From the IMG/VR virus record IMGVR_UViG_650377933_000003: a stretch of DNA of 45,850 nt, one strand, 5' to 3'. The DNA is from a virus (Duplodnaviria; Heunggongvirae; Uroviricota; Caudoviricetes). This document shows positions 1 to 10,951 of this stretch, one piece after another. Position numbers and translations under genes: made by a program. The notes beneath the pieces are model-generated. The model was not told the origin of the DNA, ran no database searches, and was given only the letters and a program-made list of their open reading frames with translations. Each line of letters opens with the position of its first letter. Positions within the stretch are counted from its first letter, which is position 1.

Positions 1-1284
1 TTACAGACTTCTGGACGGTTGCGCAGCTCTTACAACATGTGGTTGATCTTCTGCGGCGTCTTCCAGCGCACTTAAATCACGGTCTTTCACTTCTGGCATT
101 TTCAGCGCAGAGATTAAACCAATCACAGAATATGCCATGATCATAATGGCGATCGGATACCAGGATTCCGTCATGGTGCAGAAAATCCCCGCCAGGATAG
201 GACCAAAACCGGAAGCGATAAGACCACCAATTTCTTTAGAAATAGCCATTCGGGTAAAGCGGTTTTTACAGCCGAACATTTCTGCCATGGTAATGTTTTC
301 CAGAGCAAATAATCCCAGCACCGCACAGTTATGAATCACAATCAGTGCAACCATAATGGTGCTCGGGGCATAGCTTTTATCTACGATGATAGAAAGCATT
401 GGCCATGCCAGCACAATCGCAGAGGTATTCATAATAATATACGGGATCCGGCGACCAATTTTATCGGATAACCAACCAAGGAACGGAATGGTCATAAAGC
501 CGAGAATCGAACTGATCATCAATGCATCTGTTGGAATTGCTTTGTTAAACAATAACGTCTGCACTAAATAGCCTGCAAGGAAAGTCTGAATTAAACCGGA
601 GTTACCAGCCTGACCAAAACGCAGCCCTGTTGCCAGCCAGAAGGATTTGCTCTGGAACATGCTACCAGCAGGTGCAGGTTTTGCTGTCGGTTGGTTGCTG
701 TCGTTAACCTTCTCAAAGACCGGGCTTTCTTTCAGATTCATACGCAACCAGATAGCAAAGACCATCACGACAACGCTCGCCAGGAACGGTATACGCCATC
801 CCCACGCCAGCAGTTCCTCTTTACTGAGAATGAAGAACATAAAGGCCCAGATTGCCGTTGCGCTCAAGGTTCCGCAGTTAGTTCCCATAGCCACAAATGA
901 GGAGATAATTCCGCGCTTACCTTTTGGCGCATATTCCGCCAGCATCGTACCGGCACCGGAAATTTCCGCACCTGCACCCAACCCCTGAATAATACGCAGC
1001 GTCACCAGCAAGATGGGGGCAAAAACACCAATTTGTGCATAAGTCGGTAACACACCAATTAAGGTGGTACAGATCCCCATCATGGTGATGGTAATAAAGA
1101 GCACTTTTTTACGCCCTATTCTGTCGCCCATTTTGCCGAAAATAAATGCTCCGACAATACGTGCCACATAACCTGCACCATAGGTTCCCATTGCCAGAAT
1201 TAACGCCATTGCCGTTGATGATTCAGGAAAAAATATTTCATGAAACACTAACGCTGCGCCGAGCGAATATAACTGGAAGTCCAT
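1..1284 (-). CDS. ydfJ: MFS-family transporter, YdfJ-like (427-aa ORF)
   Basis: Multi-helix hydrophobic profile and MFS loop motif G-x3-D-R-x-G-R-K-K near the N-terminus; sequence recalled as E. coli YdfJ. Stop codon at bases 1..3. Confidence 0.8.
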   Translation of the reverse strand: MDFQLYSLGAALVFHEIFFPESSTAMALILAMGTYGAGYVARIVGAFIFGKMGDRIGRKKVLFITITMMGICTTLIGVLPTYAQIGVFAPILLVTLRIIQGLGAGAEISGAGTMLAEYAPKGKRGIISSFVAMGTNCGTLSATAIWAFMFFILSKEELLAWGWRIPFLASVVVMVFAIWLRMNLKESPVFEKVNDSNQPTAKPAPAGSMFQSKSFWLATGLRFGQAGNSGLIQTFLAGYLVQTLLFNKAIPTDALMISSILGFMTIPFLGWLSDKIGRRIPYIIMNTSAIVLAWPMLSIIVDKSYAPSTIMVALIVIHNCAVLGLFALENITMAEMFGCKNRFTRMAISKEIGGLIASGFGPILAGIFCTMTESWYPIAIMIMAYSVIGLISALKMPEVKDRDLSALEDAAEDQPHVVRAAQPSRSL

Positions 1285-2619: not shown

Positions 2620-3210
2620 ATGTCTCGAATTTTTGCTTACTGTCGGATATCAACGCTGGATCAGACCACCGAAAATCAACGCCGGGAAATCGAAAGTGCA
2701 GGTTTTAAAATCAAACCTCAGCAAATAATCGAAGAACACATTAGCGGCTCAGCAGCAACCAGTGAGCGTCCTGGTTTTAACCGGTTGCTTGCTCGCCTGA
2801 AATGTGGTGATCAATTGATTGTGACAAAACTGGATCGCCTTGGTTGTAATGCAATGGATATCAGGAAAACAGTGGAACAACTGACCGAAACAGGTATCAG
2901 AGTGCATTGCTTAGCATTGGGGGGCATTGACCTGACCAGTCCAACAGGAAAAATGATGATGCAAGTAATTTCAGCAGTCGCTGAATTTGAACGAGACCTT
3001 TTACTTGAACGCACTCATTCCGGGATAGTAAGAGCCCGGGGCGCAGGGAAACGTTTTGGTCGACCACCTGTGTTAAATGAAGAACAGAAACAGGTGGTAT
3101 TCGAACGGATTAAGTCAGGTGTAAGTATAAGTGCCATTGCCCGGGAATTCAAAACCTCGCGGCAAACCATTTTAAGAGCCAAAGCAAAACTTCAGACACC
3201 TGACATATAA
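2620..3210 (+). CDS. pin: Serine DNA invertase, Pin/Gin/Hin/Cin family
   Basis: 196 aa; N-terminal resolvase catalytic motif (YCRISTLDQ with the active-site Ser) and C-terminal HTH; matches recalled PinQ/PinE. Confidence 0.9.
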
Positions 3211-3437
3211 AAAATAATCTCGGTGTGAGATGCCTTACGTCTTCCAAGCCCCCTTCCTTGCCGTAAATGGAAAGATACATCTAATTATAGAATTTATATG
3301 TTTTACCCTACGGCAGTGCTGGCCATTCAATATCCTGTGCAGTTGACGTATCAACACGGTTCAGCAACACCCGATACTTCTTCCAGGCTTCCCGCAACGA
3401 GGTTTCTTCCTCCGTTGCATATACAGCTCACCTTTTT

Positions 3438-3737
3438 TCACCCACGATTAACCAACAGCCAGACCAGCAGACACGCCACCACCGGCACAGCAAAATCCAT
3501 CAGGCTTGCCACATCCCACGCGCGCGGATCAAAACCGCCCCACCACGGCATATTCATTCGCTTGCCATGCCCGAACATTTCAATCCAGCGATATTCTGCC
3601 TGGGTGTGTTCACGCGCAATGAAGAACGTACAACCGGCTATCGCCCCGTAAGCCCAGTTCCCGGTAAAAAGACCAACCAGTATCTGCGCAGCCACAGCAC
3701 AAAGCGCATGAAGGAAAGGTGTTATATCCATTTTCAT
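3438..3737 (-). CDS. Small hydrophobic predicted inner-membrane protein (about 99 aa)
   Basis: ORF 3438..3746 with two or three hydrophobic segments; the ORF-track first codon is TTG, first ATG is at 3737. No homolog recognised. Confidence 0.45.
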   Translation of the reverse strand: MKMDITPFLHALCAVAAQILVGLFTGNWAYGAIAGCTFFIAREHTQAEYRWIEMFGHGKRMNMPWWGGFDPRAWDVASLMDFAVPVVACLLVWLLVNRG

Positions 3738-3773
3738 CCTACCCAATAAAACGGGGCGCTCGGCCCCTTAATA

Positions 3774-4814
3774 TTATTTAGACGCAAGCGCCGCCTCAAT
3801 TGCAGATAATCTTTGTCTTAATTCTGCGTTTTCTTCTTCCAGTGCTGTTATTCTGTCGTCTGACTCTCTGGCTACCTGAACAAGCAAGCCAGTAACACCA
3901 GAATAATCTACTGTGTAATAACGTTCACCTTCTTCACCTTCCGATCCGCTTGCACCGTCCTGATATTTCATTGCGGAACCTACAACTTCTGGGATTGCTT
4001 CCAGAGCTTCCTGTGCAATGACACCAGCATAGGGCATACCGTTTTCTTTAAGCGTGTATGTATAGCCGTTCATTTTACGGATGCGGTCGGTTGCATTATC
4101 GATCACCTGAATGTTGTCTTTCAGATCCCGGTCGGAATGCTGGTTAAATGCGGTGGCATGACATGCACCATTAACGCTTAACATATAGGTGTTATCGGTA
4201 TTTTTCTGCGCATAGAACATATAAGCGCCACCATCAACACCGACTTCATAAACAACAGGACGGCTGGTGTTGCCCCACAATTGAGCAGTAACACCAGCAT
4301 AAGCGGTTCCCTGTGTGTTTAATGTCATGGTTGACCCATGATTGGCATATTTGATCTGTAATGTGTCGGTGTAATCAAATTTAATAAGCGCGTTACTTCC
4401 ACGCTTGCTGTATGACATAAGGCAGTTACCCATTTTGAGGTATCCGCTGTCACCGGGAAAAATCATCGTACCGCCATAAAGGTTGGTAAAGTCCCAGCAA
4501 ATGTTTGTCCCGTTATCGTTCAGGTTAAGGCGCGCCATTGCGTTACCTGGACTGTCTATCCATTTTTTGAGGTATAGTTCGCAATACGCATCCTCAACAC
4601 CTGCCGTCCTGTGAGTTGAGCGGAGTTTTCTCCCAAATATAGCTCCGCTAGTTGGCAATACCTGCTGATACCATGAAGCAGACCAGTCACCAACGATTTC
4701 ATCTTTGCTGTCTACATATAATTTTGTTGCGTAGCTTCCTTGATCGTTTTTTAATTTGCTAACGTCGGATTTTAGCGTTTTGATGTCATCAGGAATTACT
4801 GTCGATGTAGCCAT
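3774..4814 (-). CDS. Tail fibre/tailspike-like protein with C-terminal intramolecular-chaperone (peptidase S74-like) domain
   Basis: 346 aa; C-terminal segment ...NQHSDRDLKDNIQVID...GERYYTVDYSGVTGLL...ITALEEENAELRQRLSAIEA resembles the autocleaving chaperone domain of endosialidase-type and L-shaped tail fibres. Confidence 0.7.
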   Translation of the reverse strand: MATSTVIPDDIKTLKSDVSKLKNDQGSYATKLYVDSKDEIVGDWSASWYQQVLPTSGAIFGRKLRSTHRTAGVEDAYCELYLKKWIDSPGNAMARLNLNDNGTNICWDFTNLYGGTMIFPGDSGYLKMGNCLMSYSKRGSNALIKFDYTDTLQIKYANHGSTMTLNTQGTAYAGVTAQLWGNTSRPVVYEVGVDGGAYMFYAQKNTDNTYMLSVNGACHATAFNQHSDRDLKDNIQVIDNATDRIRKMNGYTYTLKENGMPYAGVIAQEALEAIPEVVGSAMKYQDGASGSEGEEGERYYTVDYSGVTGLLVQVARESDDRITALEEENAELRQRLSAIEAALASK

Positions 4815-4823
4815 TTTTCTTCC

Positions 4824-5105
4824 TCACATCCAGCCACGAAGTTGATGCTCAACAGCAACCACGTATTCATCGAATAATGACGATATTTGCGAATCATTAA
4901 TGATGCGCACGTTTACAAAATATCCGTCTTCCTTAACACATACCGGTTCGCCATCTTCAGTCAGTTCTCCGGTTTCTTTGTACACGTTACCTATCACGTC
5001 AATAAGAATATCATCCTGCATCGACTCGTCATCATAATAGCCAGTGCTATCCATAAAGGCCGAAAAGTCGGCCCTGTCGGCAAATTTGAGTGTTAAATCT
5101 TTCAT
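4824..5105 (-). CDS. Acidic hypothetical protein (93 aa) between the two fibre genes
   Basis: ORF whose start overlaps the stop of the upstream Stf gene; Asp/Glu-rich; no homolog recognised. Confidence 0.35.
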   Translation of the reverse strand: MKDLTLKFADRADFSAFMDSTGYYDDESMQDDILIDVIGNVYKETGELTEDGEPVCVKEDGYFVNVRIINDSQISSLFDEYVVAVEHQLRGWM

Positions 5106-7477
5106 TAGATTGACTCCCCCACCTGAGCATCAGTCAATGCCTTGTGCCATATTCTGAAATTCCTGACATGACCAAATAAATGACGTAACCCGGCTGTAGT
5201 CTGGCCTCCAATACGGATAATTGCGGTGTTCTGAATACAGGACCATGTGGTTTTTGTTTCGCTGGATATATGCCCGTTACTTACTGAGCACGTAGACTGC
5301 TCTGACTTTACACGCATCCCCATAACCATTTTTTCAAGCGATGCGTTTTCGTTTACCCGTCTGTTAGCTCCTCCAATATCGCAATAAGGAAATCCGTCGT
5401 AATCTGTTGAACGACCGAAGCCAAGAATAATAGCCGCTCCGGTTTGATGACCGCCGGTATCAAAAACACGTGGCGCTGCATTTGGCGTTTTATACCAGTT
5501 CTTATGTACCTCACAAAGAACCGTAAAAGGAAGATTATAAAGATTATTCTTAATTGGAACTGTAACTATATCGCTTGCGCGGGTCGCCGCCGTCGCTCCT
5601 GATATAATAAAAGATGATACACAAGGCCCATCTTCTACTTGTGGGGTGGCCAGATAAATATAGTCACCAGATACGGTTGCCCCGCTCTGCTTAGGAGAAT
5701 ACTGTATCTGAGAGCCTATTTTTAACTCCCCATCAATTGTCTGAATTGTTGCCTCTGCAAAAATCCATCCGGTAGCTTCGTCCTTTCTGACTCTCGCTGT
5801 AATCCTTGAGGCAGCACCGCCTGTCATATTAATTTCAAGCGTTTGTGTATCAATATACGCATCACCAAGAAAAGTTGTTGCGCTACCGTCATATTTATCA
5901 AACCGGATACGCAACCTTACCTGCAGTTCTGTTTTAAAACGACATGAGGTTGTCACGTGTTTATTATCGCCTGAGACATCAACTGACTTTGTTGCAGCAA
6001 TTGATGCCATATTAATGGCTGAGGTTTGCCCAATCAGAGAATCGTTGCAGACAAACTTTCCATAGGTAAAACCAAAATTATCCGTCCCTGTTTCGGGCAC
6101 ATCCATATTTGACGATCGCCCCCAACTGGCAGGGCTTTCCGAATTGAGCATGTAGTTTGTTCTTTGCCCCTCAATAAGCAGGCCATCACGTTCAAATCGT
6201 GGCTCGTCAATGGCAGCCTCTGTCAGCACACCAGATTTGTTAATATAGGTTGCTTTCGATGCACGTTTAAACTTAACAATCTTGTCGCCAGGCATCGTTA
6301 TTTCATCGTCACCAATAACAATTTTTTTATATGACGGCGAAAAGCCCGTAATCATATCCAGCGAATCGTTAAACGGTATCCACACATCAGGCAGCGGCTG
6401 TAAGACATATTTATACGGCTCCGCAGCCTGGCTTGCGTACTCTCTGGCTGCATCTTCGCTTGCTTTAGCTGCCGTCTGGCTTGCTGCCGATGCTTTCGCT
6501 GAGTTCGCAGCCGCTGTTTCGCTCACCTTTGCGTTGGTTTCACTGGTTTTTGCTGCTTTTTGACTGTTAGCTGATGCAGTGGCAGAAGCAGCCGCCGCGC
6601 TTGCAGAACTGGCTGCGGCACTCTCGCTTTGAGCCGCTGCATCCTGACTGCTTTTCGCCGCAGTTTCACTGGCTTTGGCATTCGTTTCGCTGGTCTTCGC
6701 TGCCGTCTGGCTGGACTTTGCGTTAGTTTCACTCGTCTTCGCAGCTTTCTGGCTGTTAGCCGTAGCAGTTGCTGATCCAGCTGCTGAAGTCGCAGAACCG
6801 GCTGCCGCGCTCTCGCTTTGGGCTGCTGCAACCTGGCTGTTTTTTGCCGCAGTTTCACTGGCTTTAGCATTCGTTTCGCTGGTCTTCGCTGCCGTCTGGC
6901 TGGACTTTGCGTTGGTTTCGCTCGTCTTTGCGGCTGTCTCGCTATTTTTCGCGTTGGTTTCTGATTTTTTAGCTGCTGTTGCGGAGTTTGCCGATGCAGT
7001 CTGCGAGGCCGCTGCCGCCTGTGCGCTGTTAGCTGCATTCGTTTCTGAGGTTTTCGCCGCGTTCTTCGATGATGCCGCTGCAGTTTCGGATTTCTTTGCC
7101 GCCGCTGCGCTCTGAGAGGCGGCTTCAGCGTTGCGTGCCGCTTCTTCCACCATTTCCTCAAAACGACGCAATGCCTCCGGCATGACATCATCTTCCGTCA
7201 TGGCACCGAGAAAATCATTCAGCGTACCTGGTCTGGAACCTTCATAGACGGTAATGGTTCCGGCATGTGAAGGCGGAAAACCTTCAACAAGCAGGATAAC
7301 GCTGTACTGGCCATACTCAACATCCATGCTGTAACGCCCGGCTTCATCCGGATTTTCAGAGGCCACCGTGTTCACCAGTACCGTGGTGCTGTTACGCTTT
7401 GCCTTCAGTTGAATAGTGCAGTTCTGTATTGGTTTTCCCGCACCATCTTTCAGCACACCTGAAATCTGTACTGCCAT
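5105..7477 (-). CDS. stf: Side tail fibre, lambda Stf-like N-terminus with a long Ala/Ser/Thr-rich repeat region and a distinct C-terminal domain
   Basis: From the ATG at 7477 (GGAG upstream) the protein starts MAVQISGVLKDGAGKPIQNCTIQLKAKRNSTTV..., matching the recalled lambda Stf N-terminus; residues about 110-360 are K-x-S-E-T-N-A-K-like repeats. Confidence 0.85.
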   Translation of the reverse strand: MAVQISGVLKDGAGKPIQNCTIQLKAKRNSTTVLVNTVASENPDEAGRYSMDVEYGQYSVILLVEGFPPSHAGTITVYEGSRPGTLNDFLGAMTEDDVMPEALRRFEEMVEEAARNAEAASQSAAAAKKSETAAASSKNAAKTSETNAANSAQAAAASQTASANSATAAKKSETNAKNSETAAKTSETNAKSSQTAAKTSETNAKASETAAKNSQVAAAQSESAAAGSATSAAGSATATANSQKAAKTSETNAKSSQTAAKTSETNAKASETAAKSSQDAAAQSESAAASSASAAAASATASANSQKAAKTSETNAKVSETAAANSAKASAASQTAAKASEDAAREYASQAAEPYKYVLQPLPDVWIPFNDSLDMITGFSPSYKKIVIGDDEITMPGDKIVKFKRASKATYINKSGVLTEAAIDEPRFERDGLLIEGQRTNYMLNSESPASWGRSSNMDVPETGTDNFGFTYGKFVCNDSLIGQTSAINMASIAATKSVDVSGDNKHVTTSCRFKTELQVRLRIRFDKYDGSATTFLGDAYIDTQTLEINMTGGAASRITARVRKDEATGWIFAEATIQTIDGELKIGSQIQYSPKQSGATVSGDYIYLATPQVEDGPCVSSFIISGATAATRASDIVTVPIKNNLYNLPFTVLCEVHKNWYKTPNAAPRVFDTGGHQTGAAIILGFGRSTDYDGFPYCDIGGANRRVNENASLEKMVMGMRVKSEQSTCSVSNGHISSETKTTWSCIQNTAIIRIGGQTTAGLRHLFGHVRNFRIWHKALTDAQVGESI
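6400..7160. repeat. Degenerate in-frame tandem repeats inside stf (K-[STN]-S-E-T-N-A-K units)
   Basis: Recurrent DNA strings such as gctggtcttcgctgccgtctggctggactttgcgtt and matching peptide periodicity; also generates long spurious ORFs on the + strand. Confidence 0.7.
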
Positions 7478-7537
7478 ACTCACTCCACAAATAAAAAAGG
7501 CGCCATTTCTGGCGCCCGTATTGGGGTTATAAATATT

Positions 7538-10500
7538 TCAACGGATACTGATACCGGAAGCAGCTTTTTTGGTCACAATCACCGTACAGTCTGTGATGTT
7601 ACCTGCGCCCTGATTGCCTTTCTGGAAAATCTTAAACTCCAGAGTGACGTTACCACCACCACTCGGCATATCAATAACCGCACTGTAACTACCGGGAATG
7701 GCTCCTTTAGTTTCTCTGGATGCGATTAATACGCCATTTTTGCGAACTTCAAAACCATAACCCGTGTATCGCGTACCTCCCGGGTTATTACCGCTCCCCG
7801 GATCGTCATACGCCACACCGTTAAAAATAATGGGCGGAATAATGATTTGGCGGTCAAAGTTATGATCATCGTAAATGGTGACTGTAACCGTCCCGTTTGG
7901 TGTTTCCGTGTTACCCCACGTACCAGCCTTTTTCGGGAATGATTTGGATACAGTTTTAACGAAGTCACCTCTGACCTGGTTCGCCTCCAGCATGCCCTTA
8001 ATCGTACAGTTTTCATTTACCGTGACATTATTGAGCGTCCCGGAGTTCGCATTCACGTTACCGCTGATATCGGCATTTTTCGCCGTCAGCCGCCCGTCCG
8101 GTGTCAGGGAAAATACCGGAGGATTGCCGCCACTGGTAATGGTGGGAGCCGTCAGATACTTCAGGAACACTTCGTTCATGAATATCTGGTTGCCCTGCGC
8201 CACAAACATCGGCGTTTCATTCCCGTTTGCCGGGTCAATAAACGCGATACGGTTAGCGGCAACCAGGAACTGGCTCAGTTTGCCTTCCTCCGTATCCTCC
8301 ATGCTGAGGCCAAGCCCCGCGACATAATGTTTGCCGTCTTTGGTCTGCTCAATTTTGACGCCCCACATGGCATTCCATTTATCGTTGGCGTCCTTCCACT
8401 CTTTCGAAAACTCCTCCAGTCTGCTGGCGTTATCCTCCGTCAGCTCGAGTTTTTCCAGCAGCTCCTTGCCGAGATGGGATTCGGTTATCTTGCCTTTGAA
8501 AAAATCCAGGTAACCTTCCGCATCATCGCTCGCCCGACCGACGGCCTCCACGAATGCCGATTTGCCAACGGTGTTCACACTGCGGATATAAAAGTAATAA
8601 TCATGGCCCGGTTTGATATTGATACTGGCGGCTATCCAGTACAGCGCCGTACCAAGATAGCGGGCTGTGGTTTCAACCTGCCTGATATCGGTAATCCGCT
8701 TTTCCGAGAACCAGAACTCAAACTGTACCGTCGGATCATAAACCGCAAGATGCGGCGTGGCGGTTATCTGAAAATAGCCCGGCGTCAGCTCAATCCGCGA
8801 TGGTGCTGCCGGTGCGGCAATCCGGAACGATACCGACGCCGGATCGCCCTGCTGCCCCCACGCATTTACCGCCCGGACTGTCAGACTGTAATTTCCCAGA
8901 GCCAGCTGCCTGAAGCGGTATGTGGTTTCCGTCGTCCGGGCCGTGCTGACCAGCCGCTCACTGCCGTCATCCGCTGCCACGGTCAGGCGAAGCATAAAGC
9001 TCACGCCCTTCACCACCTTCGGCGTATCCCAGCGCGCCAGCACCTGGTATTCCCCGCTGTCTGCGGTGACTTCGGCGGTCAGGTGCTGCACCGCTGGCGG
9101 CGTGACACCATTCACCGTGCCGCTCTGGTCGCCGTCAAAGTGCGCCCCGTTATCCACGATGGCTTCTTTTTCCGGTACATGCTGCACGGCAGTGATGGCA
9201 TACGTGCCGTCATCGTTCTCACGGATACTCACACAGCGGAACAGGCGCTGACGCAACGTCGGCAACTTCAGCCCCCACACACTGTATTCTGCAACGCCGT
9301 CAGGAACCCGATTCACTTTCACCTTAAGTCCGTCGGTGACGGACTGAACCTCCACGCTGACCGGATTACCACTTCCGTCAACCAGGCTTATCAGCGTGGT
9401 ACCGGAGGATGGCAGCGTGATTTCACGGTCGAGCGTCAGCGTCCGGGTCTGGCTGTTCACCGCCAGCACGCGACCACCGGTGCTGATACCGGCATAGTCA
9501 TCATCGCAGATTTCAATGACATCGCCCGGTACATGGCGAAGCCCTTCAGCACCCACGCTGAAATCCACGGTCTGCGTCTCCAGCAGTTCCGTTTTAATCA
9601 GCCACAGCCCGGCGCGGTGTGCCTGCCCCCGGCTGGTACAGCCAAAGGCATCCATCTTCGTGACATTACGACCGTAACGGGCAATGGCCTGCGTATCCTC
9701 CACAAGCTCTGTCGCCGTCTCCCAGCCGTTGTTCGGGTCAATCCAGTTCACCTCAACGGCATTATGGCGGTCCTTCAGGGCGCTGAAGCTGTAGCGGAAC
9801 GGCGCGCCATCATCCGGCATCACCACATTACTGCGGTTATAGGTCCACACCTTATCTGATGGTCGGTCCTGCACGAACGTCAGCGTCTGCCCGTTCCATA
9901 CCGGCATACAGCGCATCGCCGAGCAGAAATCACTGAGCACATCCCACGCCTTACGCTGCGTGGTCAGCCAGGCATTACAGGTGATGCGCGGCTCCGTGCC
10001 GCCAAAGCCGTCCGGCACCGACTGGTCGCAGTACTGGCCGATGACATACAGCGCCCATTTATCCACATCCGACGCACCAAGACGTTTTCCCATGCCGTAG
10101 CGCGGATGGGTCAGCATATCCCACAGACACCAGGCCATGTTGTTGCTGTATGCTGGCTTAAACGTTCCGTCCCAGATACCGCTGTATTGTCGCGTCTGCG
10201 GGTTATAGTTCGACGGCACCTGCAGAATGCGCCCGCGAAGATGATAATTACGACTCACCTGCTGGCTGCCGAACTGTTCCGAGTCCACCTGCACGCCGAC
10301 CAGTGCCGTGTTCGGGTAGCACTGTTTCACATCGATGATTTCGGTGTATGACGACCAGAGCGTTTTGTTCTGCAGCTGGTCTGTGGTGCTGTCCGGTGTC
10401 ATCCTGCGCATCCGGATATTAAACGGGCGCGGCGGCAGGTTACCCACCACCACCGATGCCAGATACTGTGAGGTGGTTTTGCCTTTAATGGTGATGTCTT

Positions 10501-10951
10501 TTTCCGTCACCCAGCCACCGTTACGCTGTATCTGAACCAGCAGGCGGACTTCCGACGGATTCCGGTCCCCCTTTGAGGTGGTTTCCACCAGTGCCTGCAC
10601 ACCGAAGGTAAAGCGCAGACGGTCGATGTTTGCAGACGTGATGGTCCGGGTAATCGGCGTGTCGTACTTCACTTCCGTACCCAGCACCGTCTCGGAGCCG
10701 GAGGATTCAAATCCCTCCGGCGGTGTCTGCTCCTGCTCACCTGCCCGGAAAACCACCGTGACACCGGAGATATTGGTATTCCCCTCACTGTCCAGCACTG
10801 GCGTACTGTTCAGCAGCACACTTTTTAATCCGTCCACCGGACCTTCAATCGGCCCTTCACTGATGGCGTCTATCACGCTCAGCATCTGCGTGGACTTCAG
10901 GTTGTCCTTCGCTTCGCGCGGGGTATGCCCCTTACTGCTGCCTTTACCCAT
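7538..10951 (-). CDS. J: Tail tip / host-specificity protein J (central tail fibre)
   Basis: 1137 aa; N-terminus [22 protein letters not shown]... and overall length match recalled lambda J (about 1132 aa). Confidence 0.95.

Follow-up and report, generated by a model that had tools for sequence, protein, structure and literature searches.

Organization of the side tail fibre locus

The side tail fibre locus described here lies in the IMG/VR virus record IMGVR_UViG_650377933_000003, a 45,850-nucleotide (nt) stretch of DNA, hereafter the window, which is a lambdoid prophage integrated in ydfJ, the Qin site of Escherichia coli. On the minus strand downstream of J, three genes follow one another: stf, encoding a 790-amino-acid (aa) side tail fibre protein; a small gene encoding an acidic 93-aa protein; and a gene encoding a 346-aa protein that ends in a Peptidase_S74 intramolecular chaperone domain (Table 1). 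Our analysis suggests, with a probability of roughly 0.65, that these three genes build a single composite and probably branched side tail fibre, as opposed to two independent fibres, with Stf and the 346-aa protein as its proximal and distal subunits. Positions 3400–7500 share 99.9% identity with phage Tritos (OV696610.1) and with the chromosome of E. coli LF82. Tritos, the functional lambdoid prophage to which the cassette belongs, yields siphovirus virions and forms plaques on K-12 (PMC9928086).

The three open reading frames (ORFs), described earlier from the letters alone (hereafter the sequence-only reading), are confirmed at their minus-strand coordinates. The stf stop codon and the start codon of the 93-aa gene share the letters TAATG, and the 346-aa gene starts 9 nt past the 93-aa stop codon, with its own GAGGA ribosome-binding site 8 nt ahead of the ATG. 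Because the genes overlap or are spaced by 9 nt, with terminator-like hairpins at both ends, they form one unit. The stf gene is counted here from the ATG at 7477; the mechanical ORF begins two codons earlier, with a GTG at 7483. The Tritos annotation calls its product a lambda stf homologue, and the product matches the 'tail protein' family phrog_1419 over its full length (793 of 793 profile positions), and the 93-aa and 346-aa proteins likewise match phrog_1361 (92 of 92) and phrog_4563 (346 of 346) end to end. Since each ORF is full length against its own family, and since the three recur as separate genes in more than 100 independent loci, the possibility that they are fragments of one frameshifted gene, against which the sequence-only reading had cautioned, is excluded. 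The 93-aa and 346-aa genes are in the same frame here (TGA plus 9 nt), but KarlBarth has a spacing of 11 nt and the Drexlerviridae locus L092 one of 2 nt, and a fusion produced by stop-codon read-through is rejected because the in-frame spacing is not conserved.

Table 1 Features of the fibre cassette and its flanks, listed from J downwards.
Feature	Position	Strand	Basis or remark
J	7538–10951	−	Upstream of the fibre cassette
Terminator-like hairpin between J and stf	7498–7517	−	Site equivalent to an annotated terminator in phage 21
stf, 790-aa side tail fibre, probable proximal subunit	5105–7477	−	ORF; stop codon 5105–5107
Stf residues 1–133, lambda-type N-terminal virion anchor	7079–7477	−	PF08400, PDB 9e7m
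Stf residues ~134–357, Ala/Ser/Thr-rich repetitive shaft	6407–7078	−	Tandem repeats, low-complexity fibre-shaft matches
Stf residues 358–790, exchangeable globular C-terminal module, first candidate receptor-binding module	5108–6406	−	
93-aa acidic alpha/beta protein (phrog_1361)	4824–5105	−	ORF; start overlaps stf stop
346-aa protein, probable distal fibre subunit (phrog_4563)	3774–4814	−	ORF, PF13884, PHROG
346-aa protein residues 1–16, conserved N-terminal motif MATSTVIPDDIKTLKS, putative docking peptide	4767–4814	−	
346-aa protein residues ~55–226, beta-rich body or knob, second candidate receptor-binding module	4137–4652	−	
346-aa protein residues 227–346, Peptidase_S74 intramolecular chaperone domain and predicted C-terminal helix	3777–4136	−	
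Terminator-like hairpin directly 3′ of the 346-aa gene	3753–3767	−	Closes the three-gene unit
97-aa membrane protein (phrog_1443), three hydrophobic stretches	3438–3731	−	Just past the hairpin that closes the cassette
Tfa C-terminal remnant, 37 codons	3308–3418	−	RefSeq annotation
pinQ, intact serine invertase gene	2620–3210	+	560 bp from the cassette

Stf carries a lambda-type anchor and an exchangeable C-terminal module

The N-terminal region of Stf is that of a lambda side tail fibre, as the sequence-only reading had proposed. Residues 3–133 match PF08400, 'Prophage tail fibre N-terminal' (E = 1.8e-67), and residues 1–94 match the lambda Stf N-terminus solved in PDB 9e7m, chain Ta (E = 1.7e-49). 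The shaft that follows contains tandem repeats at 6527–6943, with a 189-bp unit present 2.2 times, and would form a coiled-coil trimer. Two further ORFs lie inside this repetitive region, one of 222 aa in an alternative frame (6523–7191, minus strand) and one of 146 aa in antisense (6675–7115, plus strand); both are almost certainly artefacts of the repeat composition and not genes.

Beyond the shaft, Stf belongs to a fibre type that is found well outside the lambdoid phages. Homology to the fibres of rV5-like, Drexlerviridae, Dhillonvirus and T5-like phages starts at about residue 358–362 or in the shaft, and in every case reaches the C-terminus. Within the C-terminal module, residues 434–634 score 50 bits with NF048003, the 'phage head spike fiber domain' (cut-off 36), and cover profile positions 1–181 of 182. 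A 742-residue BLASTP alignment, which includes the C-terminal module, gives 52% identity between Stf and Gp22 of IrisVonRoten, and in the published AlphaFold model of Gp22 a galectin-like domain protrudes at the C-terminal end of the fibre (BASEL 2025).

A recognizable tfa gene does not follow stf, in agreement with the sequence-only reading: none of the three downstream ORFs matches a Tfa family in Pfam, PHROG or NCBIfam, a functional tfa is absent, and only the 37-codon remnant listed in Table 1 is present. The explanation offered for this absence, that the S74 domain makes a separate Tfa unnecessary, is right in one half. It accounts for the 346-aa protein, which carries such a domain and needs no Tfa, but it is uninformative about Stf, in which a Pfam search gave no PF13884 match; Stf does without Tfa because another globular module forms its C-terminus, one of the gene transfer agent (GTA) head-spike-fibre or galectin-like kind.

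The 346-aa protein ends in an S74 chaperone domain

PF13884 (Peptidase_S74) is matched by residues 227–278 of the 346-aa protein at 52.8 bits (E = 4.8e-14), against a cut-off of 22, which bears out the S74-like module of the sequence-only reading; the two stretches that it had quoted, SDRDLK and ITALEEENAELRQRL, are both found in the translation. The catalytic pair stands at the start of the domain as S227-D-R-D-L-K232, the two residues being five apart (Ser227 codon 4134–4136; Lys232 codon 4119–4121). An alignment of 35 homologues shows that the Ser/Lys dyad is kept, S227 and K232 each being at least 90% conserved, and SDRDLK aligns to SDRRIK of S16 gp37 (PDB 6f45). The 346-aa protein is predicted to undergo autoproteolysis at this point.

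The region ahead of the S74 domain is β-rich. In an AlphaFold2 model of the monomer, residues 60–110 and 165–225 form β-strands with a predicted local distance difference test score (pLDDT) of 70–91, a helix is predicted at the C-terminus (residues 304–345), and residues 227–307 have a pLDDT below 50. The middle of the protein shows weak similarity in sequence and fold to the C-terminal domains of T4 gp34, apart from which a Foldseek search with the monomer model returned nothing significant. Some homologues carry the NCBI name 'pyocin knob domain-containing S74 family peptidase'. No recognizable virion anchor domain is found in the 346-aa protein, the N-terminus of which holds only the conserved motif of about 16 residues.

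A small acidic protein is coupled to the end of the fibre gene

The 93-aa protein has a mass of 10.6 kDa and is acidic, as had been noted, with an isoelectric point of 4.05 and 21 Asp and Glu residues against 7 Lys and Arg residues. Its AlphaFold2 model has a pLDDT of 84, and the fold matches to this model are all uninformative. The sequence-only reading saw no obvious role for this ORF; this holds insofar as no function is assigned to phrog_1361 in the libraries and literature searched, but the ORF is no orphan and belongs to a conserved, coupled family. Its homologues follow lateral-fibre genes in lambdoid phages, Drexlerviridae, Dhillonvirus, Queuovirinae, T5-like and rV5-like phages, and in each of the eight phages inspected the fibre stop codon and the start codon of the small gene overlap by 1 or 4 nt. 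To judge from these gene arrangements, the family appears always to be translationally coupled to this type of fibre, in at least five phage lineages.

A profile search of 1.84 billion representative proteins gave 112 hits at E ≤ 0.001, nearly all of them stand-alone proteins of 85–110 aa. Matches in several stretches of giant PKD- or TPR-repeat proteins were judged spurious because partial matches are added up over the repeats. The small protein is nearly invariant while the C-terminal module of the adjoining Stf drops to 41% identity, a pattern compatible with either a connector placed where the joint is conserved or a factor recognizing the initial and final segments of the module, both of which are conserved. 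In several unannotated records labelled 'Campylobacter phage' (MG0656xx), the small-protein genes are 100% identical to genes of rV5-like coliphages, and the Campylobacter host labels of these records look doubtful.

The putative joint is conserved and the modules on either side are apparently exchanged

IMG/VR was scanned with the back-translated N-terminal motif of the 346-aa protein, which was found in at least 120 places. Among the matches listed, 114 are at the start of an ORF and 6 are internal. In all of the 114 ORF-initial matches listed, a gene of the 93-aa family ends 9–12 nt upstream, and wherever the upstream sequence suffices the small gene is in turn preceded by an Stf-type C-terminal module. 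The six internal matches listed, which are chance matches, have neither a 93-aa-family gene nor an Stf-type module beside them. The motif of this fibre type can be written M-x-T-x-T-V/N-I-P-x-D-I-x-x-L-K. Across ten distal subunits from four phage groups its consensus is M.T.TVIP.DIT.LK, and the mean frequency of the top residue is 0.80 at positions 1–16 as opposed to 0.38 at positions 17–45.

Fibre module, small overlapping gene and motif-bearing gene follow one another in the same way in Drexlerviridae (tuinn, L091, L092), Dhillonvirus (KarlBarth) and T5-like phages (IrisVonRoten, SIA3lw, L093–L095). In these phages the N-termini of the fibres, which act as virion anchors, are mutually unrelated. 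The distal subunits of these phages start with MATVTVIPSDITKLKN in tuinn, MVTKTNIPADITALKN in KarlBarth and MVTKTVIPTDITKLKNE in IrisVonRoten and SIA3lw. The Nonagvirus ESCO3 carries the same cassette as the window; the shared stretch (94.6% nucleotide identity) begins near Stf residue 360 and stops exactly where the distal gene ends. The distal genes of tuinn (4792–5529 of L087) and KarlBarth (4770–5649 of L088) are each annotated as two ORFs, of 166 and 45 aa and of 98 and 196 aa, respectively; frameshifts, sequencing errors or a true division of the subunit could lie behind this.

Exchange is also seen around closely similar small proteins. In 80 IMG/VR loci with a 93-aa protein at least 92% identical to the one in the window, the Stf C-terminal module ranges from 41 to 100% identity, and the third gene is either of the 346-aa type, with several body variants, or of a 227–234-aa type that combines a coiled coil with an S74 domain. 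Where the contig is long enough, the third gene starts with MATSTVIP(D/G/E)DI(K/T)TLK. The mosaic hardware anticipated by the sequence-only reading is thus borne out, both by this variable Stf module beside a near-constant 93-aa gene and by the Nonagvirus cassette. Taken together, these comparisons indicate that the joint, made up of the end of stf, the 93-aa gene and the putative docking motif, is conserved, and that the binding modules on either side of it have apparently been swapped by recombination.

A second, deeply divergent subtype of the small protein (94 aa; best match 33%, to IrisVonRoten gp23) occurs in L100, L104 and about 20 other lambdoid loci in IMG/VR. Among the matches listed it is always paired with distal subunits that start with MVTK… and not with MATS…. 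The distal bodies behind the motif are common to both small-protein subtypes, which places recombination break-points inside the motif or just after it.

A scan of species-representative genomes gave Escherichia loci only, plus one contig of a metagenome-assembled genome (MAG) labelled as the Gram-positive Collinsella. This 2.8-kb contig (JAGZNZ010000051.1, Collinsella sp. MAG; L098) encodes a 93-aa protein with 90% identity, a 234-aa distal subunit and the membrane protein, and is most likely a metagenome binning error that carries an E. coli prophage cassette.

Comparison with known tail fibres

The closest described relatives are gp22–gp23–gp24 of IrisVonRoten (Bas32) and ORF42–ORF43–ORF44 of Salmonella phage SIA3lw, which are the same three-gene cassette as the one in the window. 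Stf shares the shaft and the C-terminal module with Gp22, over the alignment given above, and with ORF42 (59% over 722 residues, from the shaft onward), and has the signature of this fibre type, …RHLFGHxRNFRIWH…, in its C-terminal module. IrisVonRoten gp23, with about 92 aa and 38% identity to the 93-aa protein, likewise overlaps its fibre gene at the stop codon, and the distal S74 subunit starts with the same motif. The two cassettes differ at their ends. The anchor of IrisVonRoten and SIA3lw is of the T5 Ltf type, whereas here it is the lambda PF08400 anchor, and their distal subunit is a 'T-shaped' protein of 574–580 aa with two binding domains, whereas the one encoded here has 346 aa and a single knob and shares only the motif and the S74 domain with it. 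An AlphaFold-Multimer model places IrisVonRoten Gp24 on the proximal fibre Gp22, and the lateral fibres of such phages may comprise two or more proteins (BASEL 2025); recognition of the O16 O-antigen has been attributed to the lateral fibres (BASEL). In SIA3lw virions, both ORF42 and the S74 protein ORF44 were identified by mass spectrometry (PMC12752171), so that both large proteins of this T5-like homologue are virion components.

A functional likeness exists to LtfA and LtfB of DT57C and DT571/2 (Golomidova 2016; Ayala 2023), which form an L-shaped branched fibre with an anchor on one protein only, such that the second, S74-bearing protein reaches the virion only via the first. Both LtfA and LtfB are receptor-binding and widen the host range on O-antigen-bearing E. 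coli. Membership in the LtfA/LtfB family is nevertheless rejected on sequence. LtfA has an S74 domain of its own whereas Stf has none, the DT57C docking regions resemble those of phiEco32 gp14/gp15 and the joint is not homologous, the LtfA chain 8hqz_d matches Stf in the low-complexity shaft only (E = 0.025), and a small intervening protein is not described for DT57C.

Similar to Stf of the lambda Stf–Tfa pair (Ur-lambda), the Stf described here has the PF08400 anchor, represented by 9e7m, and lies at the same position after J, but its C-terminal half is unrelated to that of lambda Stf and a functional Tfa is missing. The S74 domain, for its part, resembles those of the K1F endosialidase, T5 pb1 and S16 gp37 in its PF13884 match, its S-x4-K pair, its C-terminal position and its predicted trailing helix. 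In those three proteins the domain sits on a full-length fibre or spike, whereas here a short stand-alone distal subunit carries it and cleavage is predicted. The head spike fibre domain of the Rhodobacter capsulatus GTA (NF048003) is located on a capsid spike, whereas its counterpart here is at the end of a tail fibre; the two may share a polysaccharide-binding role.

A proposed composite fibre and its alternatives

In the composite fibre that we propose, Stf would be the proximal subunit, with its lambda-type N-terminus plugged into the tail tip, followed by the Ala/Ser/Thr-rich shaft and ending in a globular module of about 430 aa, the GTA head-spike-fibre or galectin-like domain of which may be able to bind a surface glycan. 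The 346-aa protein would be the distal subunit, trimerizing with the aid of its own C-terminal S74 chaperone domain, which would then cut itself off just before Ser227 to leave a mature protein of about 226 aa. Attached to the Stf end by its N-terminal peptide of some 16 residues, this protein would present a second receptor-binding knob. The 93-aa protein, presumably produced in step with Stf through the overlapping stop and start codons, would be either a stoichiometric connector or a dedicated assembly factor. Swapping of such modules would allow host-range determinants to pass between lambdoid, T1-like, Dhillonvirus, 9g-like and T5-like phages. The proposal that the 346-aa protein docks on the end of Stf, as its distal part or as a branch, follows from two observations: the 346-aa protein lacks an anchor, and nothing but the C-terminal fibre module and the small protein accompanies it constantly. 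The dual receptor-binding capacity suspected in the sequence-only reading has its counterpart here in two candidate modules, the C-terminal module of Stf and the distal knob.

The sequence-only reading had taken the locus for two separate fibres, and in this it is probably wrong. Independent attachment of Stf and the 346-aa protein to the tail tip, as alternative host-range determinants, would suit the existence of two separate genes, each with a C-terminal part of the receptor-binding type. In cryo-electron microscopy of DT57C, moreover, weak extra densities are present near the tail tip and were interpreted as LtfB folded back, so that contact between a second fibre and the tail body is not unthinkable. 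We consider two independent fibres unlikely, however: the 346-aa protein has no recognizable anchor and a conserved N-terminal element of only 16 residues, yet proteins of this type occur in phages with unrelated tail tips (lambda J-type, T5, T1-like and 9g-like). Their constant neighbours are limited to the small protein and the C-terminal module of the fibre, which always come first, and not one of the 114 ORF-initial motif matches listed lacks these neighbours. Still less plausible is that the 346-aa and 93-aa genes are decaying prophage cargo or a recombination relic that contributes nothing to the virion. There are indeed relics nearby, namely the Tfa remnant and the orphan invertase gene pinQ, but both ORFs are uninterrupted and span their PHROG families from end to end, the 346-aa gene is conserved across hundreds of records and E. 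coli genomes (see below), the genes are kept in the strictly lytic phages ESCO3, IrisVonRoten and SIA3lw, where relics are not tolerated, and in SIA3lw the S74 homologue is part of the virion. This explanation is largely refuted.

A closer competitor keeps the composite fibre and changes the part played by the small protein, which would be a purely non-structural chaperone of the head-spike-fibre-type C-terminal module of Stf, functionally replacing Tfa, while the distal subunit docks directly on Stf. The 93-aa gene sits at the usual position of a chaperone gene, directly downstream of the fibre gene, and is translationally coupled to it, with the stop/start overlap of 1 or 4 nt in eight of eight phages; the protein is small and acidic, and the published Gp22/Gp24 model is shown without it. 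The small protein is also kept in phage 21, ev243 and the rV5-like JeffSchatz, where it has no adjacent distal subunit. It can therefore not be a docking adaptor only, and its role must be tied first to the end of the fibre. A chaperone of this kind is a serious possibility, though we consider it the lesser one. Equally tentative is the suggestion that the ~92-aa protein (phrog_1361) is a structural connector that, with the last strands of the fibre module and the 16-residue motif, forms a universal 'plug-and-socket' joint. Were this so, the joint would be common to lambdoid, T1-like, Dhillonvirus, 9g-like and T5-like coliphages, S74-type receptor-binding tips would be exchangeable between otherwise unrelated phages, and the small protein would cap the socket in phages without a distal subunit.

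Besides the occurrence of the small protein without a distal subunit, several points weigh against the composite fibre. The physical docking of the distal subunit on Stf is something that we infer from sequence comparison. The conserved gene order could reflect linkage and recombination hot-spots and not protein contacts, and the co-segregation of the MATS… and MVTK… starts with the small-protein subtypes is trivially explained by the gene spacing of 9–12 nt. The AlphaFold2 monomer model of the 346-aa protein is poor overall (pLDDT 61), as might be expected of an obligate trimer. As for the 93-aa protein, the gel of SIA3lw virions ended at about 19 kDa, above the mass of this protein, and the virion proteomics of rV5 concern a different fibre allele.

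Prevalence and significance

The passage of siphoviruses through the O-antigen layer of natural E. coli strains is decided by their side or lateral tail fibres. The present arrangement is common and not unusual. Of 5426 complete E. coli genomes, 984 (about one in five) carry a 93-aa gene of the present subtype. The 346-aa gene is found over at least 80% of its length in 511 (about one in ten), and a 4.1-kb query, comprising the three cassette genes and the membrane-protein gene, over at least 80% of its length in 373. In 421 records the 346-aa gene has an identity of at least 99%, and five phage records contain the whole unit.

Among lambdoid phages, the cassette represents a type of multi-subunit lateral fibre that has been described before. 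It does not overturn current understanding, since such fibres with self-cleaving chaperone domains are known from T5-like phages and small siphoviruses. If the 346-aa protein is a removable tip of Stf, host-range prediction changes for lambdoid prophages, including those of the Crohn's-associated strain LF82, and the joint would offer a natural modular site for the retargeting of lambda-based delivery particles. What the conserved small protein does is a well-defined question of limited size.

Genes downstream of the cassette

Just past the cassette lies the gene for a 97-aa membrane protein (phrog_1443), which gave no match to a family or a defence system. Genes of phrog_1443 follow lambdoid fibre genes with or without a distal subunit (phage 21, ev243, PhiR46_1), and the protein could be a moron expressed in the lysogen, for example a superinfection-exclusion protein.

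The proximity of pinQ raises the question of an invertible fibre switch of the Mu Gin, P1 Cin or e14 Pin type. No inverted repeats flank the locus beyond pairs of 14–31 nt at chance level, no gix/pix-like core or crossover sites were found near it, and near pinQ there is no alternative fibre end, only the Tfa remnant. In the absence of crossover sites and flanking repeats the locus is not an active inversion switch, and pinQ is an orphan. The Tfa remnant and pinQ look like the scar of an older Stf–Tfa–invertase module that was replaced by the present cassette.

At the prophage boundary ydfJ is truncated (1–1284, minus strand), its N-terminus missing as in RefSeq, from which it follows that the prophage shares its attachment site with Qin, the defective prophage of E. 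coli K-12. The genes ynfT, ydfK and pinQ are retained.

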